Source: an uncultured Gammaproteobacteria bacterium (GTDB lineage Bacteria; Patescibacteriota; Patescibacteriia; Patescibacteriales; GWC2-42-12). Taken from it: a DNA stretch of 64,000 nt. The stretch is from assembly GCA_964537265.1 (NCBI GenBank), contig CAZHZE010000002.1:21395-85394 (forward strand). The letters are read 5' to 3'. The notes beneath the pieces were generated by a model. It was not told the DNA's origin. It ran no database searches and was given only the letters and a program-made list of their open reading frames with translations. Numbering within the stretch: position 1 is the first letter of the stretch; each line of letters begins with the position of its first letter. This document shows, piece by piece, positions 1,857-42,830 of this stretch. The position numbers and the translations under genes are program-made.

Positions 1857-1872
1857 CCAAGAATACGAAAAT

Positions 1873-1895: not shown

Positions 1896-1902
1896 TTTAA
1901 AA

Positions 1903-2025
1903 GGCCTTGAAAACTTTTTTCAAAAAAGTTTTCAATACTTTCAAAAATTAAAAGGTATCAAACAAAAATTTAATAGTGGGCGAAGTCCTACGGCCATTAA
2001 ATTTTTATTTGATTTTATTATAAAT
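1903..2025 (+). repeat. modular intergenic cassette, copy 1 (infC-rpmI spacer)
   Basis: Contains the A/T palindrome GAAAACTTTTTTCAAAAAAGTTTTC, the AATACTTTCAAAAATTAAAAGGTATCAAAC module, and the hairpin AAATTTAATAGT-GGGC-GAA-GTCC-TACG-GCCATTAAATTT. It ends 21 nt before the rpmI ATG. Confidence 0.85.
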
Positions 2026-2229
2026 ATGCCGAAAATAAAAACTCACAAAGCAACAGCTAAACGCTTTAAAGTAACTAGAAATGAAAAGATTTTAAAAAGA
2101 AAAGCCGGACAAGACCATTTTAATTCTCGTGAATCAGGTAATGTTACCAGAAATAAACGCAGAGACATTGGTATTTCTGAGACTGAAAGAAAAGTAATTA
2201 AACAATTAATGCCATATAATTACGCTTAA
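2026..2229 (+). CDS. rpmI: 50S ribosomal protein L35
   Basis: 67 aa, MPKIKTHKATAKRFKVT... Confidence 0.93.
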   Translation: MPKIKTHKATAKRFKVTRNEKILKRKAGQDHFNSRESGNVTRNKRRDIGISETERKVIKQLMPYNYA

Positions 2230-2339
2230 AAACTTTTTTAAAAAAGTTTTTAATATTTTCAAAAATATAATGTATCAAATAAAATTTAATAGCGAACAAA
2301 GTTCTACGGCCATTAAATTTTATTTGATTATAAATAATT
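2226..2339 (+). repeat. modular intergenic cassette, copy 2 (rpmI-rplT spacer)
   Basis: Same three modules as copy 1. The inner hairpin is GAAC-AAA-GTTC (compensated). The cassette includes the rpmI TAA stop. Confidence 0.85.
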
Positions 2340-2687
2340 ATGCCAAGAGTTAAGAGAGCAAAAATACATCTTAAAAAAAGGAGAAATTTACTTAAAAGAG
2401 CCAAAGGCTATAAATGGGGTAGAAAAAATTTAATGCGCGCCGCTTCAACCGCCGTGGTTAAAGCCGGAGTTCGCGCCTATATCGACCGCCGTTTAAAGAA
2501 ACGCGATAATCGCGCCTTATGGCAGATAAAAATCAGCGCTTTTACAAAAGAGCATGGTTTATCTTATTCAAAATTTATTCATTTGTTAAAAGTTAATAAA
2601 ATTGAAATAGATAGAAAAATTTTAGCTGATTTAGCTGTTAACAATAAAAAAGTTTTATCTAAAATTTTAGATAAAATAAAGAAATAA
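2340..2687 (+). CDS. rplT: 50S ribosomal protein L20
   Basis: 115 aa, MPRVKRAKIHLKKRRNLLKRAKGY... Confidence 0.93.
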   Translation: MPRVKRAKIHLKKRRNLLKRAKGYKWGRKNLMRAASTAVVKAGVRAYIDRRLKKRDNRALWQIKISAFTKEHGLSYSKFIHLLKVNKIEIDRKILADLAVNNKKVLSKILDKIKK

Positions 2688-2699
2688 TAAATTGCTTTC

Positions 2700-2921
2700 A
2701 TGAAAAATTTACAAATAGCACAAATTATTATAGCAGTTTTATTGATGGTAGGGATTCTTTTACAGAATCGTGGCGCCGGTTTATCGGGAGTTTTTGGCGG
2801 TACTGGCAATTTTTACCGAACTAAGAGAGGAATAGAAAAAAAATTATTTATTGCCACTATAATTTTAGGCGTTTTATTTTTTTCGGTCTCTTTAGCCATT
2901 ATTTTATTACATAAAGGCTAA
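2700..2921 (+). CDS. secG: preprotein translocase subunit SecG
   Basis: 73 aa with two TM helices flanking LLQNRGAGLSGVFGG, a SecG-like motif. Confidence 0.8.
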   Translation: MKNLQIAQIIIAVLLMVGILLQNRGAGLSGVFGGTGNFYRTKRGIEKKLFIATIILGVLFFSVSLAIILLHKG

Positions 2922-2995
2922 TTTTTAATGCTCAAGGAGGTTTAATTTATAAATATTTTTGTCAGCTTGTAATATAGCGGGCAGATTTTATCAAA

Positions 2996-4939: not shown

Positions 4940-5005
4940 TATTACTATAAATCTTTAGCTTATTAGCTAGTATTCTTAATTGCTTCATCAATTATAAAAT
5001 TAGTT

Positions 5006-5089
5006 GCCGAAGTGGCGAAATTGGTAGACGCACTAGCTTCAGGAGCTAGCGGAGGCAACTCCATGGAGGTTCGAATCCTCTCTTCGGCA
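5006..5089 (+). tRNA. tRNA-Leu (anticodon CAG)
   Basis: Acceptor GCCGAAG/CTTCGGC, anticodon loop TTCAGGA, long variable arm, T-loop GGTTCGAATCC. Confidence 0.9.
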
Positions 5090-5109
5090 CAATTAATATA
5101 AATAAAAAT

Positions 5110-6912
5110 ATGATAACAAAATATAAACCAAGAAATAGAAGGCATCAGATGCCTGTTGCTAAAACTAGTGCGAATTTAACGCATAAAAGTTTTGAGCGCC
5201 CAGTAGTCAAAACAAGCGCTACTGCTGTAATAGAAAATAAATTAAAAGTTATAGTTTTAGGCGGGCTTGAAGAAGTCGGTCGCAATATGACTGTGCTTGA
5301 ATATGATGGAGAAATAATAATTATTGATATGGGTATACAGTTTCCAGAAGAAGATATGCCTGGCATCGATTATATTATTCCTAATATCAATTATTTAGAG
5401 AATAAAACTAAAATGATTAAAGGCATAATTATTACCCATGGCCATATGGATCATATTGGAGCTATTCCTCATTTAATGTCTAGGCTTGGTAACCCGCCAA
5501 TGTTTATGGGCAAGTTAACCGCCGGCATAGTTAGAAAAAGAGCAGAAGAGTTTAATAAATGCCCTAAATTAAATATTTCAGAAATAAATGAAACTTCAAA
5601 ATTGCAGTTAGGAAAATTTTTTAGAGTTGAAACTTTAAGAGTTAATCATTCTATACCTGATTGTTTTGCCGTTATTGTTCATACTCCCCTAGGAGCAATT
5701 ATTCATACCGGTGATTTTAAAATAGATTATTCTCCAGTTAATGATAAGCCGGCTGATTTAAATCGCATTGCTCAAATCGGCGGGCAAGGCGTATTGCTTT
5801 TAATGTCTGATTCCACTGATTCTACTCATCCCGGTTATCAAATCTCCGAATCTTCCATCGGAGATGAAATGAGTAAAATTTTTGAAAAGTTAGAAGGCAG
5901 AATTATTATTGGCACTTTTGCTTCTCAATTAAGCCGTGTGCAGAAACTTTTTGATTTAGCGGAAAAATTTGGTCGTAGAATAAATTTACAGGGCCGTACT
6001 ATGAATGACAATGTAGAAATCGCTCACCAAATTGGTTATCTTAAATTCAATCCTAAAATTTTAGTTGAAGATCGAGAATTAGATCGTTTGCCTGATAATA
6101 AAATTATTATTTTGGGTACCGGCGCGCAAGGCGAAAATAATGCCTTCTTAAGCAGAGTAGTTAATAATGAACATCGCAGCATAAATTTAAAGCCGGGTGA
6201 TACCGTTATTTTTTCTTCATCAGTAATTCCCGGGAATGAACGCAGTATTCAAACTTTAATGGATATGATGGTTAGACAAGGAGCTAAAGTTATAAATTAC
6301 GAAATGATGGATGTCCATGCTGGTGGTCACGCCAAACAAGAAGATTTAAAATTAATGATGCGTTTAATTAAACCAGAATATTTTATGCCAATTGAAGGCA
6401 ACCATTACATGTTGCGCGCGCAGGCTGAATTGGCCGAACAGGTTGGTACGCCAAAAAATAAAATATTTGTGGCTGATAATGGGCAAATTGTAGAATTTCA
6501 CAAAATTTCTAGCGGAGAAGTTATTGGCAAACTTACTAAAGAAAAAGTTTTAACTGATTATGTTATGGTTGATGGTTTGGGCGTAGGTGATGTTTCTAAC
6601 ATTGTTTTACGCGATCGTCGAGTTATGGCTGAAGATGGCATGATTGTTGTTATTGCCACTATTGATGCTAAAACAGGCGATACGATTGGCAATCCAGATA
6701 TTATTTCCCGAGGTTTTGTATATATGAAAGAAAACAAAGAATTAATACAAAAGACTAGAATGAAAGTTAAGAAGATAGTAAAAGATCATAATCCGCGCAC
6801 GCCAGCTGACGACGATTATATTAAAAATAAAATCAGAAATGATGTTGGGCAATTTCTTTTTAGCCAGACTAAACGTCGTCCGATGGTTTTACCGGTGGTT
6901 ATAAAAGTTTAA
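5110..6912 (+). CDS. rnj: ribonuclease J (metallo-beta-lactamase / beta-CASP)
   Basis: 600 aa. HGHMDHIGA motif, beta-CASP region and RNase J C-terminal domain. Confidence 0.9.
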   Translation: MITKYKPRNRRHQMPVAKTSANLTHKSFERPVVKTSATAVIENKLKVIVLGGLEEVGRNMTVLEYDGEIIIIDMGIQFPEEDMPGIDYIIPNINYLENKTKMIKGIIITHGHMDHIGAIPHLMSRLGNPPMFMGKLTAGIVRKRAEEFNKCPKLNISEINETSKLQLGKFFRVETLRVNHSIPDCFAVIVHTPLGAIIHTGDFKIDYSPVNDKPADLNRIAQIGGQGVLLLMSDSTDSTHPGYQISESSIGDEMSKIFEKLEGRIIIGTFASQLSRVQKLFDLAEKFGRRINLQGRTMNDNVEIAHQIGYLKFNPKILVEDRELDRLPDNKIIILGTGAQGENNAFLSRVVNNEHRSINLKPGDTVIFSSSVIPGNERSIQTLMDMMVRQGAKVINYEMMDVHAGGHAKQEDLKLMMRLIKPEYFMPIEGNHYMLRAQAELAEQVGTPKNKIFVADNGQIVEFHKISSGEVIGKLTKEKVLTDYVMVDGLGVGDVSNIVLRDRRVMAEDGMIVVIATIDAKTGDTIGNPDIISRGFVYMKENKELIQKTRMKVKKIVKDHNPRTPADDDYIKNKIRNDVGQFLFSQTKRRPMVLPVVIKV

Positions 6913-6933
6913 AATTAATAAATATTTTTAAAA

Positions 6934-6966
6934 AAGAAGGCATAATAAATAGGCCTTCTTTTTTAA
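6934..6966 (+). terminator. intrinsic terminator after rnj
   Basis: AGAAGGC-loop-GCCTTCT followed by TTTTTT. Confidence 0.75.
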
Positions 6967-6974
6967 TTTTATGT

Positions 6975-7003
6975 TTGACTAAACGATGTTAAGATGCTAT
7001 TAT
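6975..7003 (+). promoter_or_regulatory. sigma70-type promoter (TTGACT-17-TATTAT)
   Basis: TTGACT at 6975-6980, 17-nt spacer, TATTAT at 6998-7003. Lies upstream of the M23 peptidase gene. Confidence 0.55.
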
Positions 7004-7064
7004 AATGATGTTATTTTAATAAATTAATATTAAATATATTACTAGAAATTTTAAAAAAATATCG

Positions 7065-8399
7065 GTGAATTCACTGATATTTTTAGTAAAATTTTTTATC
7101 TTTTTGAAGAGGTTATTAACCGCTTTTTTTGTTAATATAATACTAAAACCAATTATATTTATTTTAAAATTTATATTTTATAAAATTTTAGTTAAATTAT
7201 ATTTATTTTATTTTTCTATTATAAATCGTTTAGGATTATTTGATAAAATAAGAAGTAGATCCACCTCTTTTTTTTCTAACCAAAGATTACTTCATATAAG
7301 TGTTGGTTTATTAACTGTATTTTTTATTATTTTTAATTTAACCCAAAAAACTCAAGCCATAGCTCCGGACGAGATTGCTGGCAAAACATTTTTATCAGAA
7401 ATATTCTCTAATGAATTTGGTGAAAATGAAGAATTAATAGAAGAGTATTTTGACGAGGAACAAACCATAACTCCAATTCAACAGACTTATTTAGATAATC
7501 TAACCGCTTTTAAATCTCAGCCAACGGCAGAAATGATAATCCCAGAAGATATGGGATATGATCTAGAGGATGTTATTCAAAACGGTGACGCTTTAATTAA
7601 AAAAGATACCGCCTCTACAAATAATAAAATAATTCGTCCTAGAGAAGGAATTGTTGATTATATAGTAAAAACTGGTGATACAATTAGCACAATTGCTGCC
7701 AGCTTTGGAATTAGCGTTAATACAATTTTGTGGGAGAATAACCTCAACGCTTATAGCTTAATTAGGCCGGGCAATAAGTTAGTTATTTTGCCTGTTAGCG
7801 GAGTTTCTCATCAGGTTGCTAAAGGAGATACTTTACTATCCATAGCCTCTAAATATGGGGTAGATTCTAATAAAATTATGGAAGTAAATAAATTGGCTAA
7901 TGCAGAGATGCTTTCTTCAGGTCAAAAATTAATTATTCCTGGTGGCAAAAAAAATTATTATGCCAGCAATTCAGCAAGCAGCGCTTCTAATATTTCCCTA
8001 AAAAATTTATTTAAGCCGGAAAATCTTAAATCAACAGCTAGCAATAAATTGGCTTGGCCGACTGTCGGCGCTAGAATTACTCAATATTATTCTTGGAGAC
8101 ATTATGCTATTGATATAGCCAATAAAATTGGCACGCCAATTTATGCTTGCGATTCTGGCGTAATTGAAGTGGCTGGTTGGGGCAAGGGTTATGGCAATCA
8201 AATTGTTGTAGACCATGGAGGCGGCAGAAAATCTCGCTATGCTCATTTATCAAAATTTTATGTAAAAAAAGGTGATGCGGTTGAAAAAGGAGAGGCTATT
8301 GGAGCTATGGGTTCGACCGGATATTCGACTGGTTCGCATTTACATTTTGAATATATTATTAATGGCGTAAAAACTAATCCTTTAAATTATTTAAAATAA
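7065..8399 (+). CDS. LysM-domain M23 family peptidoglycan endopeptidase
   Basis: 444 aa. N-terminal TM region, two LysM repeats (YIVKTGDTISTIA, HQVAKGDTLLSIA), and a C-terminal M23 motif (..GSTGYSTGSHLHFE). Confidence 0.9.
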   Translation: MNSLIFLVKFFIFLKRLLTAFFVNIILKPIIFILKFIFYKILVKLYLFYFSIINRLGLFDKIRSRSTSFFSNQRLLHISVGLLTVFFIIFNLTQKTQAIAPDEIAGKTFLSEIFSNEFGENEELIEEYFDEEQTITPIQQTYLDNLTAFKSQPTAEMIIPEDMGYDLEDVIQNGDALIKKDTASTNNKIIRPREGIVDYIVKTGDTISTIAASFGISVNTILWENNLNAYSLIRPGNKLVILPVSGVSHQVAKGDTLLSIASKYGVDSNKIMEVNKLANAEMLSSGQKLIIPGGKKNYYASNSASSASNISLKNLFKPENLKSTASNKLAWPTVGARITQYYSWRHYAIDIANKIGTPIYACDSGVIEVAGWGKGYGNQIVVDHGGGRKSRYAHLSKFYVKKGDAVEKGEAIGAMGSTGYSTGSHLHFEYIINGVKTNPLNYLK

Positions 8400-8519
8400 C
8401 CTTTAAAAACTTTTTCAAAAAAGTTTTTAATATTTTCAAAAAATATAAGGTATCAAATTAAAATTTAATAGCGGGCAAAGCCCTACGGCCATTAAATTTT
8501 TATTTAATTATATAAAATT
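8399..8519 (+). repeat. modular intergenic cassette, copy 3
   Basis: AACCTTTAAAAAC, the A/T palindrome, AATATTTTCAAAAAATATAAGGTATCAAAT, and the hairpin at 8461-8499 (AAATTTAATAGC-GGGC-AAA-GCCC-TACG-GCCATTAAATTT). Confidence 0.85.
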
Positions 8520-8774
8520 ATGTATATTTTATTTGGTTTTATTGTTTTAGCGATTGGTGCAGCGATAGTTATTAAATCCGAGGCTATGCTGAATTCTTTC
8601 GGCAGAATAGATTTTTTTGAACGTCATCTTGGAGCCGATGGCGGGTCAAGATTAGGTTATAAATTAATAGGTATGATTATTATTTTTATAGGCATATTAA
8701 TTATGACTAATATGATAGGAGGATTTTTAGAATGGATATTATGGCCAATTTTACGTTATAATAAAATTCAGTAA
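8520..8774 (+). CDS. small membrane protein, unknown function
   Basis: 84 aa with 3 predicted hydrophobic helices. Sits directly behind cassette copy 3. Confidence 0.6.
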   Translation: MYILFGFIVLAIGAAIVIKSEAMLNSFGRIDFFERHLGADGGSRLGYKLIGMIIIFIGILIMTNMIGGFLEWILWPILRYNKIQ

Positions 8775-8780
8775 ATAATT

Positions 8781-8853
8781 GGGCTGATAGCTCAGCTGGT
8801 AGAGCACCGCGTTTGCAACGCGGGGGTCTGGGGTTCGAATCCCCATCAGTCCA
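8781..8853 (+). tRNA. tRNA-Ala (anticodon UGC)
   Basis: GGGCTGA acceptor with the G3:U70 identity pair, anticodon loop TTTGCAA, T-loop GGTTCGAATCC. Confidence 0.92.
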
Positions 8854-8857
8854 CTCT

Positions 8858-9298
8858 ATGTTTTTACCAACTCATTTAGTTGCCGGTATGATTATTGGTA
8901 AAATAACCGGCAATTATAGTATCTCAATTTTAAGCTCTATAGTCATGGATTTAGATCATTTATTTGCTTATTACCGAGCTGGTATTCTTTTTAATTTTAA
9001 AAAGTTATTTAATATGGTTACCAGCAGATCTAACGACGTCATGCCGCAAAGAAATTTTTTTCATAATATATTTTTTTGTTTTTTAGTTTCAATATTGTTT
9101 TTAGCTATAAATTTTTCTGGCGGTTTAATTTTTTTCTTTGCTTATATTTTCCATTTATTTTTAGACTCATTAGATAATTCAAATTATTATCCAATGTATC
9201 CTAATAAAAAGATAAGGCTGCATGGTCCGATAAAATATTTTTCTAAGCAAGAAGTTTTTATTGCGTTTATTTTACTTTTAATTTTTTTTATCATTTAA
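8858..9298 (+). CDS. multi-pass membrane protein, possibly membrane-bound metal-dependent hydrolase (YdjM/DUF457-like)
   Basis: The track start at 8813 overlaps tRNA-Ala, so I trimmed to the first ATG after the tRNA (MFLPTHLVAG..). Hydrophobic with conserved His/Asp (DLDHLF, HLFLD). Confidence 0.55.
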   Translation: MFLPTHLVAGMIIGKITGNYSISILSSIVMDLDHLFAYYRAGILFNFKKLFNMVTSRSNDVMPQRNFFHNIFFCFLVSILFLAINFSGGLIFFFAYIFHLFLDSLDNSNYYPMYPNKKIRLHGPIKYFSKQEVFIAFILLLIFFII

Positions 9299-9301
9299 AA
9301 T

Positions 9302-12109
9302 ATGGTTGCTGGTAAACAAAAATTTATGATAATTGACGGCAACGCGTTGATCCATCGCAGTTTTCACGCTTTGCCGCCCTTAACTACAAAAAATGGAGAA
9401 ATTGTTAATGCGGTTTATGGTTTTACCACCGTTTTAATTAAGGCTTTGCGCGAATTTAGGCCAGAATATGTAGCTTTAACTTTGGATCGAAAAGAAAAAA
9501 CTTTCCGCCATAAACAATTTAAAGATTATAAAGCCACTCGTGTTAAAGCGCCAGATGAATTATATGAGCAAATTCCTAGAGTAAAAGAAATTGCGGAAAA
9601 TTTTAATATTCCGATTTTTGAACTGGCCGGTTTTGAAGCAGATGATTTAATTGGCACCTTGGCTAATAAAGTTGATGGCAAAGTTGAAAAAATAATCGTT
9701 ACCGGTGATATGGATACTATGCAGTTAATTAATGATCATACTAAAGTTTTTACCATGAAACGCGGTTTAACCGATTCTATGATTTATGATGAGAAAGGGG
9801 TTGAAGGAAGATATGGCTTAATACCTGAACAGATGATTGATTTTAAAGCTTTGCGCGGCGATCCATCTGATAATATTCCTGGCGTAAAAGGCATTGGTGA
9901 AAAGACGGCTACCGAACTTTTACAAAATTTTAAAACTCTAGACGGAGTTTATAAAAATATAAAATCTAAAAAAATAAAAGACCGCATTCGTGAATTGCTA
10001 ATACAGCATAAAAATAATGCTTATATGAGCAAAGAATTAGCTACTATAAAATGTGATGTTCCAATTAAATTTGATTTAAACGAGGCTCGTTTCGGGCAAT
10101 TTAATCAAGAAAAATTAGCTAAACTTTTTAATGAATTGGAATTTCGTTCGCTTTTACCAAGGTTGCAGGGGTTAGCGCAAGAGGCTGAAAAAAGATTAAT
10201 AAAAACCGCTGATCATGAACAGATTGATAAATTTAAGAGGAATTTAGAATTATTTAAATATGAGTTAGTTGATAATAATAAAAAATTTGATAATTTTTTA
10301 AAAAAATTGCAGGCACAAAAAGAATTTACTTTTGATACGGAAACAGCTAACTTTAATCCGGTAACAGCTGATTTATTGGGCATAAGTTTTAGTTGGAAAA
10401 CTGGTGAAGCATATTATATTAATTTTCAATTACGAATTAAAAATTACGAATTAAAAAATGCTGATTTGTTCAACTATAAGGAAAAAAAGCATGAAAAAGG
10501 GTTTGATAATGATTGGTTGAGCAAGCTAAAGCCAATTTTTGAAAACGAAAAAATAAAAAAATATGGTCATAACATAAAATTTGATATTGAAGTTATGGCC
10601 AGCCAAGGAATAAATATTAAAGGTGTGGTCGCTGATTCTATGATTGCCTCCTATCTTTTAAATCCCGGCAGCCGTCAGCATAATTTAGACGCGGTTACTT
10701 TTAGTGAATTTAACCATGTTAAAATTTCTAAAGAAGATTTATTGGGCAAAGGCAAAGATAAAATAGTTTTTTCTGAAGTACCGGTTGAAAGACTTTATAA
10801 TTATTCCTGCGAGGACGCTGATTTTACTAATCGCTTGATAAAAAAATTAATACCAGAATTAAAGACGCAGAAATTAATTAAATTATTTGAAGAAATGGAA
10901 ATGCCACTTGTTCTAGTTCTGGCTATTATGGAAATTAACGGCATTAAAATAGATAAAGAATTTTTAAGCGCCATGGGTAAATCGGTCAATAGAAAGATTG
11001 CACAGCTAACAAAAAAAATTCATGATTTAGCCGGCACGGAATTTAACATAAATTCTACCCAGCAATTAAGAGAAATTTTATTTGATAAACTGGCTATACC
11101 GGCTATGGGCATTACTAAAAATAAAACCGGACTTTCTACTGGCGCTGAAGAATTAGCCAAATTAAAAGGCCAGCATCCAATTATTGATTTAATTCAGGAA
11201 TATCGTGAATTAGTTAAATTATCCACGACTTATATTGAGGCTTTGCCCGAATTAATTAATAAAAAAACTGGCCGTTTGCACACCAGTTTTAACCAGACTG
11301 TAACGGCTACCGGACGTTTATCATCAACCGAACCTAATATGCAAAATATACCGATTCGCACTGAGCTAGGTCGGGAAATTCGTAAGTCTTTTATCGCCGA
11401 TAAAGGCTATAAATTATTAAGTTTAGATTATTCCCAAATTGAATTGCGTCTGGCCGCCCATATGTCTGGCGATAAAAAAATGATTAAAGCCTTTAAACAA
11501 GGCGAAGATATTCACACGGCCACAGCCGCGGAAATAAATCGGATTAAATTAGAGGATGTTACTTCGGAAATGCGCCGGGAAGCTAAGGCGGTAAATTTTG
11601 GTATTTTATATGGCCAAGGGCCGCACGGTTTATCACAGGGCGCGGATATTCCCTACGCCAGGGCCAAAGAATTTATTGATAAATATTTTTCTGTTTATAA
11701 AGATGTTAAAAAATTTGTTGATGAAACTATTGAGATGGCCAGAGAAAAAGGCTATACTGAAACTTTATTCGGCCGGCGTAGAATTTTACCGGAAATAAAT
11801 TCCTCGGTGATGCAAGTTAGAAAGGCGGCTGAGCGCATGGCAATTAATACTCCGCTTCAAGGCACGGCCGCGGATATTATCAAAGTGGCCATGGTAGAGG
11901 TTCAAAAAATGATAGATAAAGAATATGGGCAGGATGTAAAAATGCTTTTACAAGTTCATGACGAATTAGTTTTTGAAGCAAAAAAAGGTTTAGCTGAAAA
12001 TGCGGCTGAAAAAATTAAAAATATTATGGAAGAAGTAATAGAATTAAAAGTGCCGATTGTAGTTGATGCTAGTATTGGAGATAATTGGGGGGAGATGAAA
12101 AACCTTTAA
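9302..12109 (+). CDS. polA: DNA polymerase I
   Basis: 935 aa. 5'-nuclease domain (IIDGNALIHRSFHA), 3'-5' exo-like domain, and pol motifs (LLSLDYSQIELR, QVHDELVFE). Confidence 0.96.
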   Translation: MVAGKQKFMIIDGNALIHRSFHALPPLTTKNGEIVNAVYGFTTVLIKALREFRPEYVALTLDRKEKTFRHKQFKDYKATRVKAPDELYEQIPRVKEIAENFNIPIFELAGFEADDLIGTLANKVDGKVEKIIVTGDMDTMQLINDHTKVFTMKRGLTDSMIYDEKGVEGRYGLIPEQMIDFKALRGDPSDNIPGVKGIGEKTATELLQNFKTLDGVYKNIKSKKIKDRIRELLIQHKNNAYMSKELATIKCDVPIKFDLNEARFGQFNQEKLAKLFNELEFRSLLPRLQGLAQEAEKRLIKTADHEQIDKFKRNLELFKYELVDNNKKFDNFLKKLQAQKEFTFDTETANFNPVTADLLGISFSWKTGEAYYINFQLRIKNYELKNADLFNYKEKKHEKGFDNDWLSKLKPIFENEKIKKYGHNIKFDIEVMASQGINIKGVVADSMIASYLLNPGSRQHNLDAVTFSEFNHVKISKEDLLGKGKDKIVFSEVPVERLYNYSCEDADFTNRLIKKLIPELKTQKLIKLFEEMEMPLVLVLAIMEINGIKIDKEFLSAMGKSVNRKIAQLTKKIHDLAGTEFNINSTQQLREILFDKLAIPAMGITKNKTGLSTGAEELAKLKGQHPIIDLIQEYRELVKLSTTYIEALPELINKKTGRLHTSFNQTVTATGRLSSTEPNMQNIPIRTELGREIRKSFIADKGYKLLSLDYSQIELRLAAHMSGDKKMIKAFKQGEDIHTATAAEINRIKLEDVTSEMRREAKAVNFGILYGQGPHGLSQGADIPYARAKEFIDKYFSVYKDVKKFVDETIEMAREKGYTETLFGRRRILPEINSSVMQVRKAAERMAINTPLQGTAADIIKVAMVEVQKMIDKEYGQDVKMLLQVHDELVFEAKKGLAENAAEKIKNIMEEVIELKVPIVVDASIGDNWGEMKNL

Positions 12110-12219
12110 AAACTTTTTTAAAAAAGTTTTTAATATTTTCAAAAAATATAAGGTATTAAATAAAAATTTTATAGCGGGCAAAGCCCTGCGGCTATAAAAT
12201 TTATATTTGATGTAATTTT
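12101..12219 (+). repeat. modular intergenic cassette, copy 4 (overlaps polA stop)
   Basis: AACCTTTAAAAAC contains the last polA codons and the TAA stop. Palindrome at 12108-12131. Hairpin at 12164-12202 with a compensated outer stem (TATAGC/GCTATA). Confidence 0.85.
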
Positions 12220-13500
12220 ATGAATCTAAAGGATTTACAAAACAAAAAAATTGCTATTTTAGGTCTAGGTTTAGAGAATACAGCCTTGGTTAAGTATATA
12301 TTAAAACATAATATTAAATGCGAAATTACTGTTTGTGACAAGCGCACGGAAATAAAAAGTAAGTTGCCGGTTAGTTGGCAATTAGGGAAAAACTATAATA
12401 AAAATTTAGAGAAATTTGATATTCTATTTCGCGCACCAGGTTGGCCGATAAATGAAGTTAAAAGTAAAAAGTTAAAAGTTGAAAGTATAAATTCTCCAAT
12501 GAGATTATTTTTTGATTTATGCCCGACTAAAAATATTATCGGTGTAACCGGAACTAAAGGCAAGGGCACTACTTCTAGTTTGATTTACGAAATTTTAAAA
12601 ATTGCCGGTAAACGAGTTTGGTTGGGCGGGAATATCGGCATAGCGCCATTTAAATTTATAGATAAAATTAAAAAAACCGATTGGGTGGTTTTAGAATTAT
12701 CATCTTTTCAACTTGAAGATATGACCGTTAGTCCGCATATTTCAGTAATTACTAATTTTTATTCTGAACATTTAGCGCCGGCTGATCCTAATAACCCGAA
12801 CTTTCATAAATCACTTAATGATTATAAGAAGGCTAAGATGAATATTATTAAATATCAGGAGAAAGGCAATTGGACGGTATTGAATCATCAATTAAGAACC
12901 ACAAACTACAAATTAAAAAGTAAAAAAATATATTTTAAGAAATCGGAATTACTTTCAAAATTAATTGGTGAACATAATAAAGAAAATATCGGCGCGGCCG
13001 TAGAAGTAGCAAAAATTGTCGGCATTAAATCTGAAATAATAAAAAAAGCCGTAGCTAATTTTAAGGGTTTAGAACATCGTTTAGAATTTGTTAAAGAAGT
13101 TAAAGGTGTAAAATATTATGACGATAGTTTTGCTACTACGCCAGAAGCGGCTATTATTGCGTTAAAATCTTTTAACCAGCCAGTAATTATTTTACTTGGG
13201 GGAGCTGATAAAGGATCTGATTTTAAGAAGTTAGCCAAAGAAGTAAAAAAGCGATGCAAGTTTATAGTTTTGATAAATGGTAAAGCTACGCCGCAGATAA
13301 AAAAACAGCTTTTAAAAGCTGGATATGGAAGAAATAAAATAAAACAAGCGAATAATATTGAAGAGATAGTAAAGATTGCTAGGTCAAAAGCGGCGGCTGG
13401 AGATGTTGTATTATTATCAACGGCTTGCGCTAGCTTCGGTATATTTAAAAATTATAAAGAAAGAGGGAATTTATTTAAAAAACAAGTAAAAAAATTATAA
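12220..13500 (+). CDS. murD: UDP-N-acetylmuramoylalanine--D-glutamate ligase
   Basis: 426 aa. N-terminal Rossmann-like GLGLEN, P-loop GVTGTKGKGTTSS, Mur ligase C-domain. Confidence 0.88.
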   Translation: MNLKDLQNKKIAILGLGLENTALVKYILKHNIKCEITVCDKRTEIKSKLPVSWQLGKNYNKNLEKFDILFRAPGWPINEVKSKKLKVESINSPMRLFFDLCPTKNIIGVTGTKGKGTTSSLIYEILKIAGKRVWLGGNIGIAPFKFIDKIKKTDWVVLELSSFQLEDMTVSPHISVITNFYSEHLAPADPNNPNFHKSLNDYKKAKMNIIKYQEKGNWTVLNHQLRTTNYKLKSKKIYFKKSELLSKLIGEHNKENIGAAVEVAKIVGIKSEIIKKAVANFKGLEHRLEFVKEVKGVKYYDDSFATTPEAAIIALKSFNQPVIILLGGADKGSDFKKLAKEVKKRCKFIVLINGKATPQIKKQLLKAGYGRNKIKQANNIEEIVKIARSKAAAGDVVLLSTACASFGIFKNYKERGNLFKKQVKKL

Positions 13501-17539: not shown

Positions 17540-17932
17540 TTATCTCCAGGCTAGGCTCCTTCTTATTTTGGCTAAAGAACTGAGGTATTTTTCCTTCGCA
17601 ATTTCTGTGAAATATGAAATAAGAAGGCTGATTTTTTTCTTCAGATTTGGATTCTTTGTCCGGTAGGTGTAGACAAAAGATCCAACAGCTGAACCATTCT
17701 TGCGATTGCTGTTCATGACTATGGGTTGTTTTTTGGTTATATCATTTTTTTCTGAAACAAAATAAACGGCGCCGGCAATAGAAAAGAACATAGCTATTAC
17801 AATTGTAGCAATACCTAACGGCGCAATAAATTTGCCATTAATCTGACCCAATAATATGGTCAACACCGATAAAGTTATTATTGAAGAAATTCCTGCTATT
17901 GTAATTTTTTCTCTTGGACTTAAAGTTTTCAT
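17540..17932 (-). CDS. two-TM membrane protein with basic C-terminal tail, unknown function
   Basis: 130 aa starting MKTLSPREKITIAGISSIITL... GC-rich relative to its flanks. Confidence 0.6.
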   Translation of the reverse strand: MKTLSPREKITIAGISSIITLSVLTILLGQINGKFIAPLGIATIVIAMFFSIAGAVYFVSEKNDITKKQPIVMNSNRKNGSAVGSFVYTYRTKNPNLKKKISLLISYFTEIAKEKYLSSLAKIRRSLAWR

Positions 17933-33540: not shown

Positions 33541-34809
33541 ATGAATTTATATGATATAAAAAAATTAAATATTCCGTCATCGCCTGGTAGCTACCAATTT
33601 TATAATAGCAAAGGTGAAATTATTTATATTGGCAAAGCGGCTAATTTAAAAAGCCGCGTTTTATCTTATTGGCAAAAAAGTGCGAATCATACGCCAGCTA
33701 AAAATAAAATGCTTAAGGAAATAAAAAAAATAAAATTAATTAAAACTGATAGTGAAATAGAGGCTTTGCTTTTGGAAGCTAATCTTATAAAAAAATATCA
33801 GCCATATTACAATGTTCTGTTGCGCGATGACAAAAGATTTTTGTATATTAAAATTTCTTTAGCTGACGAAATCCCCGGAGTTTTTTTAACTAGGACCGTT
33901 GATAAATCAGGAAAGTATTTTGGGCCGTTTACTAGCTCGCAGGCAGCCAAAGAAACTATTCGCGCACTTAGAAAAATTTTTCCTTACTGTAATATGAAAA
34001 AAATGCAGAAACGCCCTTGTTTTTATTATCAAGTTGGCCGTTGTTTGGGAGTTTGCGCTAATAAAATTAACCGGCAAGAATATTTAAAATTAGTAATTAA
34101 GCCGCTTATATTACTTCTAGAAGGAAAAAAGAAAAATGTAGTTAAAAATTTAGAAACAAGAATTAAAAAAATAGAAAAAAGTCATTGCGAAAATGAAGAA
34201 TTGATAAAATTAAAGTATGAACTTAAAAACATTAAGTATGTTTTAGAAAATTCCAGAGTATTGAGCGTGGGAGAAAAATATGCCAATGATGTATTGGAAT
34301 TAACAAAAATTTTAAATTTGCCAAAAATTCCTAAAAGAATAGAAGGTTATGACATAGCTAATATTTTTGGTAAAAACGCCGTTGGGTCAATGGTAGTATT
34401 TAGTGATGGTGAAGTTGATAAAAATCAGTATAGAAAATTTAAAATTAAAGTCGGGCAAGGCCAAGCTAATGATGTTGGTATGTTAAAAGAAATTTTAGAA
34501 AGAAGGTTTAATAATGATTGGCTATTGCCGGATTTAATAATTGTCGATGGTGGCAAGGCGCAATTAAATGCGGCTGGGCAAGTTATAAAAAAAAGAGGGT
34601 TAACAATTCCTCTTATTGCTATTTCCAAAGGAGAGGGTTTAAGATCTGCTTTAGCGGCTGATAAATTATTTTTTCCCGGGGAAAAGAAACCCCTGGTATT
34701 GCCTTTAGCTTCGCCAGCTTTACATTTAATTAAACGAGTACGTGATGAAGCGCACAGATTTGCTATTGGTTATCATAAAAAATTAAGAAGTCGTAGTTTT
34801 ATAAAATAA
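33541..34809 (+). CDS. uvrC: excinuclease ABC subunit C (short form, no C-terminal HhH2 region)
   Basis: 422 aa. GIY-YIG (YQFYNSKGEIIYIGKAANLKSRV), Cys-rich region, C-terminal endonuclease domain (IEGYDIAN..DGGKAQL). Confidence 0.88.
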   Translation: MNLYDIKKLNIPSSPGSYQFYNSKGEIIYIGKAANLKSRVLSYWQKSANHTPAKNKMLKEIKKIKLIKTDSEIEALLLEANLIKKYQPYYNVLLRDDKRFLYIKISLADEIPGVFLTRTVDKSGKYFGPFTSSQAAKETIRALRKIFPYCNMKKMQKRPCFYYQVGRCLGVCANKINRQEYLKLVIKPLILLLEGKKKNVVKNLETRIKKIEKSHCENEELIKLKYELKNIKYVLENSRVLSVGEKYANDVLELTKILNLPKIPKRIEGYDIANIFGKNAVGSMVVFSDGEVDKNQYRKFKIKVGQGQANDVGMLKEILERRFNNDWLLPDLIIVDGGKAQLNAAGQVIKKRGLTIPLIAISKGEGLRSALAADKLFFPGEKKPLVLPLASPALHLIKRVRDEAHRFAIGYHKKLRSRSFIK

Positions 34810-39051: not shown

Positions 39052-39516
39052 TTATTTTTCTTTTACTTTAATGGAAAATTGCTTAGCGCTTTTTGCTTTA
39101 GGTAAAATTACAGTTAAAACGCCATTATCTAAAGACGCCTCAACTTTTTCTACCTCAACCTCTACCGGTAAAATAATAGAACGAGAAAATCCTCCCCAAT
39201 AACATTCTTTAATTAAGTAATTTTCTTCGGAGATTCTTTCTTGGATTTCTCTTCTGCCTCTGATGGTTAGCATGTCATTATTAATAGAGATATCAATATC
39301 GCCGGGTTTAACTCCGGCTATGGTTGATTTTACGATAATATTCTCCGGGCTTTGAAAAACGTCAATAGAAAGTTGACCCTCGTCATAATCGCCACCCAAC
39401 CATTCGCCGTTTGCTATATTTTCTCCTTCTAGAAGTTGTTCAACAATGTCTTTCTCTTCATTTTTTTTATTTTTTTTATCATCTAAACCGGATAATTTTT
39501 TGAAAAAATTTGCCAT
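39052..39516 (-). CDS. Hsp20/alpha-crystallin small heat-shock protein
   Basis: 154 aa. Alpha-crystallin domain (DVFQSPENIIVKS.., LDNGVLTVILPK). Confidence 0.9.
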   Translation of the reverse strand: MANFFKKLSGLDDKKNKKNEEKDIVEQLLEGENIANGEWLGGDYDEGQLSIDVFQSPENIIVKSTIAGVKPGDIDISINNDMLTIRGRREIQERISEENYLIKECYWGGFSRSIILPVEVEVEKVEASLDNGVLTVILPKAKSAKQFSIKVKEK

Positions 39517-39550
39517 ATATTTTTAAAGTTATATCAATATTATAATGTTT

Positions 39551-39579
39551 ATTATAATATTTAACAAGAGTGCATGCAA
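39551..39579 (-). promoter_or_regulatory. sigma70-type promoter (TTGCAT-17-TATAAT) for hsp20
   Basis: Minus strand: -35 at 39574-39579, -10 at 39551-39556. Confidence 0.6.
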
Positions 39580-39604
39580 ATAATTATAATTTTTATTTCT
39601 GATA

Positions 39605-39862
39605 TGAAGTCTGTCAATTCAAGTGGACAACGCAGGACTCGAAGCGCCTCTGTGCTTACCTTGGAGCCGAATTTTCAAAACAGGGTTGGCCTCCACAATA
39701 TTTATTGTCTTTTTGGTGGACCTCTCGCTCACAGGTTGGAACCGAATTATCATAGAAATGATACAGTGGCAAAAAGTAAGAGAGGAATTTGACTTTGTTT
39801 CAGGCAAAAAATCCATAAATCAAGAACTGCTTTATTATATACTGTCAAAATAAAATCGGCAA
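39605..39862 (-). ncRNA. unclassified structured RNA candidate containing a broken tRNA-Val 3'-half copy (includes its TTGCCG-17-TATAAT promoter)
   Basis: Only mutually overlapping ORFs on both strands. Shares TTGTGGAGGCCA, TTCGAGTCCTG and TTGTCCA with the tRNA-Val at 41427-41500. 5'/3' pairing CCUCUCUUAC with GUAAG(CAC)AGAGG, and GUCAAAUUC with GAAUUGAC. Confidence 0.4.
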
Positions 39863-39904
39863 GAGTCTTTGGTGTTTAATATAACATATAACAGATAAGG
39901 CTGT

Positions 39905-39944
39905 TAATAAAATAACGGGCTGTCCTATCGCGGATCAGCCCGTT
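39905..39944 (-). terminator. hairpin terminator after the 39982-40323 gene (possibly bidirectional)
   Basis: AACGGGCTG-13 nt-CAGCCCGTT with T-rich flanks on both strands. Confidence 0.65.
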
Positions 39945-39981
39945 TATCTTTACCTTAAGTGCTAAATAATTTTTGGCAATT

Positions 39982-40323
39982 TTATTTCGATAAGACTTTC
40001 ACCCAGTTTATTGTTTTTTGCTCTCTCACCAAGAATATGCCGCCATATACTCTTGGAAATAATTGTATTTTTACATGATTTCCCAATTTAAGCTCCGATA
40101 AAGTAATCTTGTCCCCGTCGCTGTTGTAGAAGCGTGATTTGTCTTCAAGCTTCAATACATAAGCAGGATCATAAGGACCATCACCTTGAAGAACTATTGC
40201 GTCTTCCCTTATGTCTACAATAGTTCCGATTCTGCTATATTTTAAATAAAAATTAAAAGAAAAAACCAAACCAATTAACACAGAAAGGACTGTATAAATA
40301 ATTCTTTTTAGTATACTTTTCAT
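39982..40323 (-). CDS. membrane-anchored hypothetical protein
   Basis: 113 aa with an N-terminal TM helix. ~43% GC in a hand-counted sample. Confidence 0.6.
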   Translation of the reverse strand: MKSILKRIIYTVLSVLIGLVFSFNFYLKYSRIGTIVDIREDAIVLQGDGPYDPAYVLKLEDKSRFYNSDGDKITLSELKLGNHVKIQLFPRVYGGIFLVREQKTINWVKVLSK

Positions 40324-40337
40324 GATATATTGATTTT

Positions 40338-41075
40338 TTATTTAATAACACAACATTGAGGTAATTTACCATTCGTCTCAAAACTATCTTCAATGGATCC
40401 CAAATCGTTCCAGTCTGATCCACACGCTGTACCATCAGCTTTAATTTGAGTAGCTTTTCCACTTTGTTGTAAACATTTTTCAAATGTAATTTTTGTTTTC
40501 GTATTTGCAGCAGAAAAAGATGTTGGCGTTGCTGCTTGCTTTAAAAAATTAACATAAGTTCCGGAACAATTTTCTCTGATTGTTTTTTCAAATATTCCTT
40601 TCGTAAAAACTTGCTGCATTAAATCATTGCTAAGCTCACAATGTATGGCAAGCCCATTAAAACCAACTGCACCTCCTGAAGCAATAATTTTCCCATCATA
40701 TATGCATTTACTATCTCTTGATCCTGCAATTGTATGTTCAACTTGAAATTTTGTATTGGCATCAAATGATGGATCGTCATAAGAAACAATTCCTTTCGTC
40801 GGAGAACAATTTGCGGCAAGATCATAAAGACATTGTTTTGTTTCTTTGCAATTTGCCACTAGGCAAGTACGATCTTCCCCACAATCAAAAACATTATTAT
40901 TCGCAGCAGCTGTATTATTTTGTTCTTTTGAATTGTTCTGAGTATTAGTTTGCTGATTTTGGGTAGAATCTTTTTGTTGAATTTGTTGATTTGCATTATC
41001 GGTCTGTTTTCCACAACCTGATAACACGACAACTCCTCCTAGTAAAATTACTAAAGTTAGAGTTTTTTTAATCAT
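40338..41075 (-). CDS. Cys-rich lipoprotein, unknown function
   Basis: 245 aa. Lipobox LSGC, Gln/Asn-rich linker, then about 11 Cys. ~45% GC in a hand-counted sample. Confidence 0.7.
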   Translation of the reverse strand: MIKKTLTLVILLGGVVVLSGCGKQTDNANQQIQQKDSTQNQQTNTQNNSKEQNNTAAANNNVFDCGEDRTCLVANCKETKQCLYDLAANCSPTKGIVSYDDPSFDANTKFQVEHTIAGSRDSKCIYDGKIIASGGAVGFNGLAIHCELSNDLMQQVFTKGIFEKTIRENCSGTYVNFLKQAATPTSFSAANTKTKITFEKCLQQSGKATQIKADGTACGSDWNDLGSIEDSFETNGKLPQCCVIK

Positions 41076-41309
41076 ATTTTTATTATTAAGTTAATTACTA
41101 TCGCATTACTTATGCATATATTATAACATGAGAGATTAATTAATACATGGCAAACAAAGTTTCAGCTCGACTTTGCGCGGATTTCAAATTATTTGATTGC
41201 CTCAAAATCCAGCCAAATTCGTTATAATGTAAATATAGGTCAAGTGTACTTCCGCAACTAAATGACCCGAAACACGCTATAATTAGAATAGAGGCAGATT
41301 CTGCGGTTA

Positions 41310-41338
41310 AAACAAAAAACACTATCTGAAAAGATAGT
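41310..41338 (-). terminator. intrinsic terminator downstream of the tRNA pair
   Basis: Minus strand: ACTATCT-TTTC-AGATAGT followed by GTTTTTTGTTTT. Confidence 0.7.
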
Positions 41339-41426
41339 ATCTTAAGTGAGTATTTCTCAAGGGGGTGTTCAAACCCTTACTTAGACCTTGGTAAAGCCAT
41401 TAGTAGGGTATTTAAACATGGATTTG

Positions 41427-41500
41427 TGGACAATACAGGACTCGAACCTGTGGCCTCCACAATGTCAATGTGGCGCTCTAACCAACTGAGCTAATTGTCC
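41427..41500 (-). tRNA. tRNA-Val (anticodon GAC)
   Basis: Reverse complement: GGACAAT..CCACA-TTGACAT-TGTGG..ACAGG-TTCGAGT-CCTGT-ATTGTCC-A. Confidence 0.9.
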
Positions 41501-41518
41501 ATTATATTTATTTTTAGG

Positions 41519-41592
41519 TGCGCGTGGATGGACTTGAACCATCGACCCCCGCCTTATAAGGGCGGTGCTCTAACCAGCTGAGCTACACGCGC
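41519..41592 (-). tRNA. tRNA-Ile (anticodon UAU)
   Basis: Reverse complement: GCGCGTG-TA-GCTC..GAGC-A-CCGCC-CTTATAA-GGCGG-GGGTC-GATGG-TTCAAGT-CCATC-CACGCGC-A. Positions 34-36 are TAT. Confidence 0.85.
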
Positions 41593-41600
41593 TTAAATCT

Positions 41601-41627
41601 AAAAGAAAAAAAGGAGCTAATCCTTTT
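41601..41627 (-). terminator. intrinsic terminator after the DHH gene
   Basis: Minus strand: AAAGGA-TTAGC-TCCTTT followed by TTTTTCTTTT. Confidence 0.5.
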
Positions 41628-41663
41628 TAATAATTTAACATTGTTTTTATGTTTTTTCAAGTG

Positions 41664-42830
41664 CTATAACGGCAATTTGTTTAATTTATCTTGTATAGTT
41701 TCAATAATGGTTTTTTCCGCTTCAATAATGGGTAAATTTATAATTGCCCGAGACAAACTTTTTGTTCCGGTCGGATTAAATTCTTTTATTAAACCTAATG
41801 AATCAATATTTTTTATAGTATAAAGTAATAAGTTTGTTTTATTAATTGATTCGTTAGAACTTTCTTTATTTTCAATGTTTTCATAAATAATGGCGATAAC
41901 TTTAGCCTGGGGAATGCTGACAATCAATTCGTCTATTACATCGGTTAAATCTTTTTCCGAAGAATTAGTTTTTAAAAAGTCAGCTGCTGATAAAGTTGAC
42001 CAAACCAATTTATTATCTAAACTACTAGATAATCTAGCTAAAACTCGCCCCCAAAGTTTTAAGACGTTAATACTTTTAGAGCGATAAAGATTATTAACGA
42101 TTTCTTCGCGTCTGGCGCCTAGCGACATAAGCTGTGAAGCGGTAAGCAAGGCGCGTGGTGTGACATTATTAGTTTTGAAACTTTTAGTTTCCGCGATCAT
42201 GCCGGTTAAAAGGCAAGTGGCTATATTATCATCAATAAAGTCTTGCCCAAAACTTTCCATTAAAGAGAAAACAATTTCCGAGGTTGAAACAGCGGTAAGT
42301 TCAATAAAATCAATTTGACCATAACCTTCATTATTTGAACTATGATCAATATTTATAATTGGAGTATGGTAAAAAAATTCAGTGTCATTGTCATAAATAG
42401 TGCCTAAAGATTCTAAATCCGGAGTATCGATCGTAATAATTAAATCATATTTAAATCCGCTTGCGCCAGAAGTTATATCCGATGAACTAAAAAAACCATC
42501 TTTAGGTGAGATAATAAAATTTAATTGATTTTTTTCTTGGGTATATTTGATTTGGCTTACTTTAGTATTGGTGACGTCTAAAGAAATAATAAATTTTCTT
42601 AAATTATCCAGCTTATGTTTTATTTCAGTATAGCCGGGTAAAAATGAATAAAGTTTATTTAAACTGAATTTTTCCGCTACCACATCAACGTTTTTATCCA
42701 TTTTTTTTAAAAATAAAAATATAGCCAAAGCCGAAGCTACGGCATCGCCGGTCCAAGTTTTTTTGAAAGTAATCAAAATATTTGAAGCTTTCTTAATTTG
42801 TTCAAAAATTTGTTGTTCTTGAGTTAACAT
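41664..42830 (-). CDS. DHH-family phosphoesterase (NrnA-like)
   Basis: 388 aa. DHH/DHHA1 layout (GDAVAS.., NIDHSSNN, GGH-like C-domain). Confidence 0.8.
   Translation of the reverse strand: MLTQEQQIFEQIKKASNILITFKKTWTGDAVASALAIFLFLKKMDKNVDVVAEKFSLNKLYSFLPGYTEIKHKLDNLRKFIISLDVTNTKVSQIKYTQEKNQLNFIISPKDGFFSSSDITSGASGFKYDLIITIDTPDLESLGTIYDNDTEFFYHTPIINIDHSSNNEGYGQIDFIELTAVSTSEIVFSLMESFGQDFIDDNIATCLLTGMIAETKSFKTNNVTPRALLTASQLMSLGARREEIVNNLYRSKSINVLKLWGRVLARLSSSLDNKLVWSTLSAADFLKTNSSEKDLTDVIDELIVSIPQAKVIAIIYENIENKESSNESINKTNLLLYTIKNIDSLGLIKEFNPTGTKSLSRAIINLPIIEAEKTIIETIQDKLNKLPL

Follow-up and report, generated by a model that had tools for sequence, protein, structure and literature searches.

A small lineage-specific genomic islet, probably acquired at a tRNA-Val/hsp20 hotspot of a Falkowbacteria-like chromosome

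The DNA analysed here is a 64 kb stretch of the contig CAZHZE010000002.1, which is called the window below and has an overall G+C content of 32.8%. The segment 39710-41425 is probably a small lineage-specific genomic islet, which was acquired at the hotspot that separates hsp20 from the paired genes of tRNA-Ile(tat) and tRNA-Val(gac) in a member of the Falkowbacteria (Patescibacteria/candidate phyla radiation, CPR). This reading is directly supported by the insertion relative to all the relatives, the position at a tRNA 3' end, the atypical oligonucleotides, the hotspot behaviour of the interval, and the older tRNA-derived units that lie beyond the inserted DNA. The islet is 1.7 kb long and contains two genes, which encode two predicted strain-specific cell-envelope proteins. 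It works like a tRNA-hotspot genomic islet, which is a known kind of element; it is not a proven member of the integrase islands. The original prediction, made from the sequence alone, had described a GC-rich islet at 39600-41426 that was possibly left by an integrase-mediated insertion into the tRNA-Val gene.

The CPR/Patescibacteria genomes are tiny and are thought to hold few classical mobile elements, and their gain of strain-specific surface proteins is poorly understood. The present locus is a concrete case of a hotspot that swaps small cargo (envelope proteins, toxin-antitoxin pairs, and GIY-YIG nucleases) across a Falkowbacteria clade.

Comparison with related loci

The relatives comprise 47 loci from Patescibacteria metagenome-assembled genomes (MAGs), which were retrieved by scanning a genome collection with the DHH-family protein encoded beside the islet. 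The loci share 50-91% protein identity with this query. The window was assigned to a Falkowbacteria-like CPR chromosome because the DHH matches are Patescibacteria MAGs, many of them named Candidatus Falkowbacteria. On the minus strand the gene order is DHH, tRNA-Ile, tRNA-Val, 350 nt without genes, an open reading frame (ORF) of 245 aa, an ORF of 113 aa, 465 nt without genes, hsp20, DUF3006, and a VanW-family gene. The order ValRS|DHH-tRNAIle-tRNAVal-hsp20-DUF3006-VanW is held in 23 of the 47 loci, as judged by tblastn with seven local proteins.

Neither cargo protein was detected by tblastn in any of the 47 loci, and short contigs from the same organism gave the only matches. The blastn comparison of 39400-41700 with the relatives identified homologs only for 39451-39575 (the start and promoter of hsp20), 39623-39709, and 41423-41696 (the tRNAs and the end of the DHH gene); the DNA of 39710-41425 has no homolog in any of the loci. 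The islet is variable among relatives, as the original prediction had suggested might be checked. The homology ends at 41423-41426, the final bases of tRNA-Val, and the islet starts at this tRNA 3' end. The intact tRNA-Val had been named as one boundary of the islet; this is confirmed, and the insert begins at the first base after the gene. The other boundary had been placed at 39600; it is better placed near 39710-39775, which is the distal edge of the islet proper.

The empty site can be seen in the two sister genomes, L003 and L004. Their tRNA-Val ends with ..ATTGTCCACC and passes straight into the hsp20 promoter, CTTGTTAAATATT.., with about 55 nt between the tRNA and hsp20. In the neighbour-joining tree of DHH and VanW, the window is the sister of L003/L004; L005-L007 form the next clade, and L008 and L042 are outside. 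The site is empty in L003 and L004, and in the outgroups L005-L007 and L042 tRNA-Val is followed directly by the tRNA-derived units described below. These data are accounted for by one gain in the branch of the window.

The interval between the DHH gene and hsp20 varies from 294 nt to 6.2 kb across the relatives. It holds a DUF5666 secreted protein and a large uncharacterized membrane protein in L008, a HAD hydrolase and a GIY-YIG nuclease in L024, a HigB/HigA-IrrE pair and two large secreted proteins in L041, and Bro-N and DUF6804 proteins in L048. The cargo of these genomes is unrelated to that of the window. The interval between tRNA-Ile/tRNA-Val and hsp20 is a recombination hotspot, and the two genes of the window are a lineage-specific gain there.

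Small GIY-YIG nuclease genes were also observed next to the tRNA genes. One abuts the 5' end of tRNA-Val in L024 (1433-1708 of the gap), and another lies just upstream of tRNA-Ile in L036 (512-814 of the gap). L031 has a decayed copy, with a 5' fragment of tRNA-Val on its far side. These genes look like cassettes of the homing-endonuclease type inserted beside tRNAs.

Base composition and oligonucleotide signature

The islet had been described as GC-rich, which does not hold. The G+C content of 39600-41426 is 34.0% versus 32.8% for the window, at the 74th percentile of same-size windows across the 64 kb (mean 32.7%, standard deviation (sd) 2.3%). The 60-nt counts behind the description are arithmetically correct (40081-40140, 43.3%; 40381-40440, 45.0%; 12221-12280, 25.0%), but they are not representative: windows of 60 nt have an sd of 9.2%, 15% of them reach at least 43% G+C, and 22% fall to 25% or less. 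The two cargo genes have 32.7% and 33.6% G+C, similar to the neighbouring genes. The reported cluster of spurious ORFs is a weak signal, with 10 ORFs of at least 40 aa versus 6.7 +/- 2.0 in same-size windows (90th percentile).

When the G+C and k-mer profiles proposed with the prediction were calculated, the G+C difference vanished and a different anomaly appeared, in the oligonucleotides. By oligonucleotide signature, 39710-41425 is the most deviant stretch of the window. Its dinucleotide relative-abundance distance is 0.18 versus 0.067 +/- 0.026 (99.7th percentile), and the five highest tetranucleotide distances anywhere in the 64 kb belong to stretches that overlap the islet. The source of the signal is the 245-aa lipoprotein gene, with a CpG value of 0.82 versus 1.31 genome-wide, and the signal remains after the Q/N-rich linker is removed. 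This gene also has the lowest G+C content at third codon positions (GC3 = 0.17, z = -3.0) among 41 genes. The 113-aa gene has the second-worst fit to the synonymous codon usage of the window (z = -3.3).

Elsewhere in the window, the worst synonymous-codon fit (z = -3.6) belongs to a 131-aa ORF at 17540-17932 on the minus strand, whose GC3 is high. This ORF may be spurious, or may be a second gene of foreign origin.

tRNA-Val-derived units and their module

Two degenerate units derived from tRNA-Val, one of them tentative, lie beyond the cargo. Unit (ii) contains the remnant noticed in the original prediction. It consists of GACAAT.., ATTGTGGAGGCCA (39687-39699), a module of about 41 nt (39646-39686), and the T-loop to the 3' end, TTCGAGTCCTGCGTTGTCCAC (39623-39645). 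The sequence TTCGAGTCCTGCGTTGTCCA at 39624-39643 (minus strand) matches tRNA-Val at 18 of 20 positions, for which 0.01 matches are expected by chance in the window. The 18/20 fragment reported at first is real, and it is extended by a collinear 13/13 match of 39687-39699 to the 3' strand of the anticodon stem and the variable loop. The two tRNA-Val-like pieces have the orientation of the tRNA, with about 43 nt between them that do not derive from a tRNA. By blastn, 39623-39709 is 84.5% identical to L006 over 71 nt and 79% identical to L007. Neither ARAGORN nor Rfam, even at E <= 10, predicts a tRNA at 39623-39711, where the D arm and the 5' strand of the T stem are absent; by these searches it is not a tRNA gene. 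Unit (i) is tentatively another decayed copy. It reads ..GCCAC..AATTCGGTTCCAAC..GAGAGG TCCACC, and the TCCACC end is as in the unit of L007; no blastn homolog of it was found in the relatives.

In five of the relatives (L005, L006, L007, L042, and L033), one or two units follow tRNA-Val directly, without the cargo. The units share a common plan: the anticodon-stem 3' strand and variable loop, a non-tRNA module of about 45 nt, the T-loop, the T-stem 3' strand, the acceptor 3' strand, and CC. The tRNA-derived parts match the tRNA-Val of each genome itself, and the module is conserved between genomes, with the consensus RCCCCGTTTT..TTCGGCNCCGAGGA..GCACCGAGGAGC. The module is also found in a tRNA-Ile-like pseudo-copy of L017, beside a tRNA-Val(cac) in L077, and beside a tRNA-Arg in L136, the last two being metagenome contigs. 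The sisters L003 and L004 have lost the units. The units predate the cargo, because the cargo-less outgroups carry the same module-bearing units directly after tRNA-Val; therefore, the cargo went in between the tRNA-Val 3' end and an existing array of units. The fragment had been regarded as the 3' end displaced by this insertion, which cannot be maintained, since L005, L006, L007, L042, and L033 share the unit without the cargo.

Several searches were made for the nature of the module. A structured RNA, considered for the tRNA-like stretch and its module, was rejected: single folds are at the level of shuffled sequences (z = 0.03), and when 8 copies are folded as an alignment the energy is weak (-7.7 kcal/mol) and covariation is almost absent, any double change being found in 3 of 14 pairs. 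A decayed form of the GC-rich palindromic mini-elements described below is not supported, since an nhmmer profile of 16 mini-elements scores the modules no better than shuffles. The viral contigs contain 0 matches to the module. The pattern used for the metagenome contigs was too loose, as 115 of 120 matches came from contigs with at least 45% G+C and were discarded unexamined; of the 5 matches in low-GC contigs, 2 are real (L077 and L136). The allele of the remnant, TCCTGCGTTGTCCA, was not found in any of the loci or the viral contigs. The Rfam search of 39400-41700 at E <= 10 gave only the two tRNAs, antisense-tRNA artefacts, and a weak group-II fragment match (19.8 bits) over a terminator hairpin.

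Extra tRNA fragments were also observed around the intact tRNA-Ile and tRNA-Val in L018, L023, L028, L029, L031, L033, L034, L036, L039, L040, and L077. The 5' fragments are placed upstream, and copies from the D-loop to the 3' end are placed downstream. Four of these relatives (L028, L033, L036, and L077) have a nested arrangement of 5' half, intact tRNA, and 3' half. The fragments contain numerous perfect GC-rich hairpins at the D-loop, anticodon stem, and T-loop. There is some chance, though a small one, that the module-bearing units are traces of elements that disrupt tRNA genes in Patescibacteria and form a family not described before. If so, such elements, possibly driven by a serine recombinase, would enter the T-arm of a resident tRNA gene, disable this gene, and bring a copy that replaces it. 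The nested halves would then be explained, and the islet of the window would be the cargo left by one such event.

Recombinases and the route of entry

Serine recombinase genes are found against the same tRNAs in three relatives. L019 has a large serine recombinase with Resolvase, Recombinase, and Zn_ribbon_recom domains (11297-12646, minus strand), which runs antisense into the 3' end of tRNA-Val. In L010, an ORF with a zinc-ribbon recombinase domain (9817-10701, minus strand) is cut by the contig end and runs antisense into the 3' end of tRNA-Ile. L013 has a short internal remnant of a large serine recombinase (1531-1860, minus strand). The last ~10-20 codons of the recombinase ORFs are encoded by the complementary strand of the tRNA. 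The contigs of L010 and L019 end inside the recombinase genes, so the elements are not delimited; synteny breaks after the tRNAs in all three relatives. Since the recombinase genes abut the tRNAs in L010, L013, and L019, recombinase-bearing elements use these tRNAs in the clade.

A probable sequence of events is as follows. The cargo entered exactly at the 3' boundary of tRNA-Val, and displaced the older array of two degenerate units (39623-39775) from the tRNA. Delivery may have been by an element that carried a site-specific recombinase and targeted the tRNA 3' end; its recombinase part might have been lost later or never fixed. The inserted unit consists of the tRNA-operon terminator, about 230 nt of upstream sequence, the lipoprotein gene, the membrane-protein gene, and a strong terminator. 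Integrase-mediated entry, as originally proposed from the geometry of the locus, is plausible. The lineage-specific insertion after tRNA-Val stands; the fragment on the far side is older than the cargo, and there is no integrase. Delivery by an element with loss of the recombinase is the favoured route, at somewhat below an even chance, and is preferred to homologous replacement through the flanks; the remainder falls to other routes.

Several points weigh against the proposed origin. The clear tRNA-like copy is older than the cargo, and the G+C content of the islet is native. The k-mer anomaly could be due in part to the Cys/Gln/Asn-rich composition of the protein, since any such effect is still included in it. 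The islet has two ORFs without recombinase domains in Pfam and NCBIfam, in agreement with the earlier remark that no integrase remains. The tblastn search of the islet with the serine recombinases of the relatives identified no pseudogene, with only a trivial match to the antisense-tRNA tail, and no recombinase was seen in the variable gaps of nine relatives. The only repeat that flanks the cargo is ATTGTCCAC at the tRNA end versus TTTG-CCAC (~39766-39775), which is short and imperfect; it is too short to carry weight and could be chance. The cargo is not bordered by a recent and extended direct repeat of the tRNA 3' end. No tRNA fragments flank the large islets of L008, L015, and L041; in L048 the one fragment, short and from the 5' side of tRNA-Val, lies upstream of the tRNAs, and the distal end of the islet has none. 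Finally, the islet has no match in the phage and plasmid collections or the viral contigs.

Homologous replacement through the flanks is possible but less likely than delivery by an element. Linear DNA from a related cell, received by transformation or transduction, might have recombined in the conserved flanks without any site-specific recombinase, and the islet would then be a 'replacement flexible island'. The flanks are highly conserved, and the tRNA-Val is 100% identical to that of L003. The lack of a recombinase and of a clean att repeat at the cargo boundaries fits such a route, as do the islets of other relatives that lack tRNA-fragment borders (L008, L015, and L041) or have only the 5'-side fragment upstream of the tRNAs (L048). 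The identities of ValRS, DHH, and VanW rank the relatives differently (ValRS, 93.6% to L004 and 85.4% to L003), and the discordant rankings suggest recombination in this neighbourhood. A jumbo-phage-sized contig also carries a tRNA-Val with acceptor and T arms identical to those of the host. However, no donor genome with this cargo at the locus was found among the 47 loci, and the nearest homolog of the cargo lies in another context. The insertion point is the tRNA 3' end to the base, and the serine recombinase genes lie at the same tRNAs in three relatives, which argues against such a replacement.

It is improbable that 39623-39775 is a functional gene for a small RNA that mimics a tRNA, with the islet unrelated to it. 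The sequence of the module is conserved among nine copies, in genomes with no more than 56-88% identity between their DHH proteins, the module always lies at the junction of the variable loop and the T-loop, and promoter-like sites are present upstream on the minus strand (39907-39878 and 39862-39834). However, the negative Rfam and ARAGORN searches, the shuffle-level folding, the weak alignment fold, and the missing 5' strand of the T stem argue against such an RNA. The truncation of the copies also differs from one genome to the next, and L003 and L004 lack them.

Slightly less probable still is an ancestral region that the relatives lost through separate deletions, for which recombination of the repeated ..TTGTCCACC ends is one possible route. 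Deletion between TCCACC repeats is seen at this locus, as L003 and L004 lost the units that the outgroups and the window kept, and a single deletion in the ancestor of L003/L004 could have removed the cargo and the units together. However, in L005, L006, L007, and L042 the units come straight after tRNA-Val and nothing of the cargo is seen, and losses would be needed in all 47 loci; moreover, the cargo genes have the most atypical composition of the window and almost no homologs anywhere. That the islet is native DNA picked out by G+C sampling noise is hardly tenable: the G+C content is native and the ORF count reaches only the 90th percentile, but the segment is truly polymorphic in its presence, has unique DNA, and is a k-mer outlier, and the match to a tRNA fragment is significant and genuine.

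Relationship to known tRNA-associated elements

The tRNA islands of Prochlorococcus are the closest comparison. In that model, a transient element leaves its cargo next to a tRNA, the newest DNA lies nearest to the tRNA, older partial-tRNA remnants are pushed distally, and the islands are mostly integrase-free (Hackl et al., bioRxiv 10.1101/2020.12.28.424599). The present locus resembles these islands and the tycheposons in its streamlined genome, the variable cargo beside a specific tRNA, the newest material nearest to it, the distal remnants, and the lack of an integrase; the elements themselves are rare and transient in both. However, the islet is tiny (1.7 kb, two genes). Tycheposons use tyrosine recombinases, whereas the relatives of the window have large serine recombinases at this site. 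The partial tRNA copies here, unlike those of Prochlorococcus, contain a non-tRNA module that is conserved, and those of relatives also have GC-rich hairpins inserted in them. An active element with this cargo was not found, which also differs from the tycheposon model.

In the classical case, prophages or islands are reportedly inserted by an integrase into tRNA 3' ends, as Williams is said to have described in 2002. The islet similarly starts at a tRNA 3' end and has a tRNA 3' copy in direct orientation on its far side. However, no integrase is present, and the repeat is non-contiguous, with a 43-nt non-tRNA insert in place of the T-stem 5' strand. The repeat is also older than the cargo, which is itself flanked only by an imperfect repeat of no more than 8-9 nt.

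Mobile elements can leave behind non-canonical fragments of tRNA genes, which van der Gulik et al. (2023, PMC9897764) describe chiefly for the gene sets of archaea. The units of the window are likewise partial tRNA-like sequences; they lie beside a canonical tRNA gene and are not recognised as tRNAs. They differ from those fragments in that they are tandem units with a module shared across a CPR clade.

The arrays of tRNA fragments and modules seem to be previously undescribed. The module-bearing units, and the GC-rich in-frame mini-elements described below, are more unusual observations than the islet, which is an ordinary example of a known phenomenon, although in a phylum in which such islets have seldom been analysed in detail. 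The islet may be useful as a marker for how cell-surface proteins vary between strains, and the arrays could be approached through it.

Cargo operon and its products

The islet is a complete, self-contained transcription unit bracketed by terminators (Table 1). The first terminator-like hairpin lies 85-115 nt past tRNA-Val and upstream of both cargo genes. The original prediction had described the cargo as a membrane-anchored protein and a Cys-rich lipoprotein, and the ORFs, the LSGC lipobox, and the membrane helix agree with this description.

The 245-aa protein has the N-terminus MIKKTLTLVILLGGVVVLSGC, a putative signal peptide with a lipobox Cys, as is typical of a lipoprotein. In NCBIfam, about 10 lipoprotein families matched it below threshold, only by their signal regions and only within residues 3-58. 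Its family is sparse, with 25 representatives in 1.84 billion proteins, several of which have N-terminal membrane anchors. The closest homolog (57% identity) has a different gene context with no tRNA near. The alignment-based AF2 model (mean predicted local distance difference test score, pLDDT, 78) has no fold match in the PDB, the best Foldseek E value being 1.5. The 113-aa protein has no Pfam match and no homolog besides itself among 5.8 billion proteins, and its AF2 model (pLDDT 63) is too poor for a fold search. The searches by profile and by structure that were proposed for the cargo therefore recognised only the lipoprotein signal: Pfam and NCBIfam give nothing on function beyond this region, and no PDB fold was matched. 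Exact matches to the cargo proteins were found only in short (1-3 kb) Logan contigs from three samples (SRR11845623-25). No homologs of the cargo proteins were found in the viral contigs.

Table 1. Positions of the islet, the tRNA-derived units, and the flanking genes in the window.
Feature	Position	Strand	Basis
Islet proper, lineage-specific inserted segment	39710..41425	-	No DNA homolog in 47 loci (blastn); absence by tblastn; strongest k-mer outlier
Terminator-like hairpin and U-run, 3' of tRNA-Val, inside the inserted DNA	41309..41343	-	-14.3 kcal/mol, z = -3.6, then GUUUUUUGUUUU
Cargo gene 1, 245-aa Cys-rich lipoprotein (lipobox LSGC, Q/N-rich linker, two Cys-rich modules)	40338..41075	-	ORF
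Cargo gene 2, 113-aa orphan protein with N-terminal membrane helix and small beta domain	39982..40323	-	ORF
Strong intrinsic terminator of the two-gene operon	39905..39944	-	9-bp G+C-rich stem, then AUUUUAUU; -26.1 kcal/mol, z = -6.1
Unit (i), tentative decayed module-bearing tRNA-Val-derived copy, distal edge of the inserted DNA	39712..39775	-	Comparison with L007 by eye
Unit (ii), tRNA-Val-derived pseudo-copy, the remnant of the original prediction	39623..39711	-	Matches to tRNA-Val; homologous units in L006 and L007
tRNA-Val(gac), intact, proximal islet boundary	41426..41500	-	ARAGORN, Rfam; identical in the sisters L003 and L004
tRNA-Ile(tat), first of the tRNA pair 3' of the DHH gene	41517..41592	-	ARAGORN; Rfam tRNA 74.9 bits; kept in relatives
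DHH-family gene, conserved proximal flank of the hotspot	41664..42830	-	Pfam DHH; query for the 47 loci
hsp20, conserved distal flank of the hotspot	39052..39516	-	Pfam HSP20 1.5e-19; synteny
hsp20 promoter, conserved, TTGTTA-17-TATAAT	39539..39567	-	Directly adjoins the tRNA-Val 3' end in L003 and L004

Other observations

The relatives contain GC-rich palindromic mini-elements of ~27-36 nt, which lie in frame in protein genes and have the consensus CCCGCC(T/A)(T/A)CGC..AAGCT(T/A)CGGCGG(G/A)CAAG. They were found on the minus strand in L004 (18035), L005 (17146), L006 (16709 and 8243), L009 (6190), and L015 (7660 and 12264). They add peptides of the PAFAKASAGK type to a gene whose product resembles UvrC by eye, and ASAKATADKP or AFAKATAGKP to ValRS. 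The corresponding sites of the window are uninterrupted, with an empty site at ~34453 in the gene at 33541-34809. These mini-elements behave like the Rickettsia palindromic elements. A single full-text search of a paper library found no report of in-frame palindromic mini-elements in CPR.

The viral contig L172 (IMG/VR UViG_3300037755_000305, 184 kb) has the size of a jumbo phage and carries 13 tRNA genes within 10 kb (720-10480). They include a tRNA-Ile(tat) and the tRNA-Val(gac) with the acceptor and T arms of the window's gene. The contig is probably from a phage of this bacterial clade.

In most bacteria, AUA is read by a lysidine-modified CAU tRNA, and a genomically encoded UAU tRNA-Ile is uncommon. 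The tRNA-Ile with the anticodon TAT (UAU) next to tRNA-Val is conserved across the clade. In eight relatives (L009, L011, L019, L025, L030, L035, L042, and L048), the tblastn matches of ValRS are split into two blocks that are 240-530 nt apart, near residues 443-458. Many relatives thus have an insertion in ValRS at this place, and the window has none. At the start of the window there is a tight cluster of RNA genes (679-1241), in which tRNA-Leu(taa) lies 4 nt after a tmRNA (679-1066) and tRNA-Gly(gcc) comes next.

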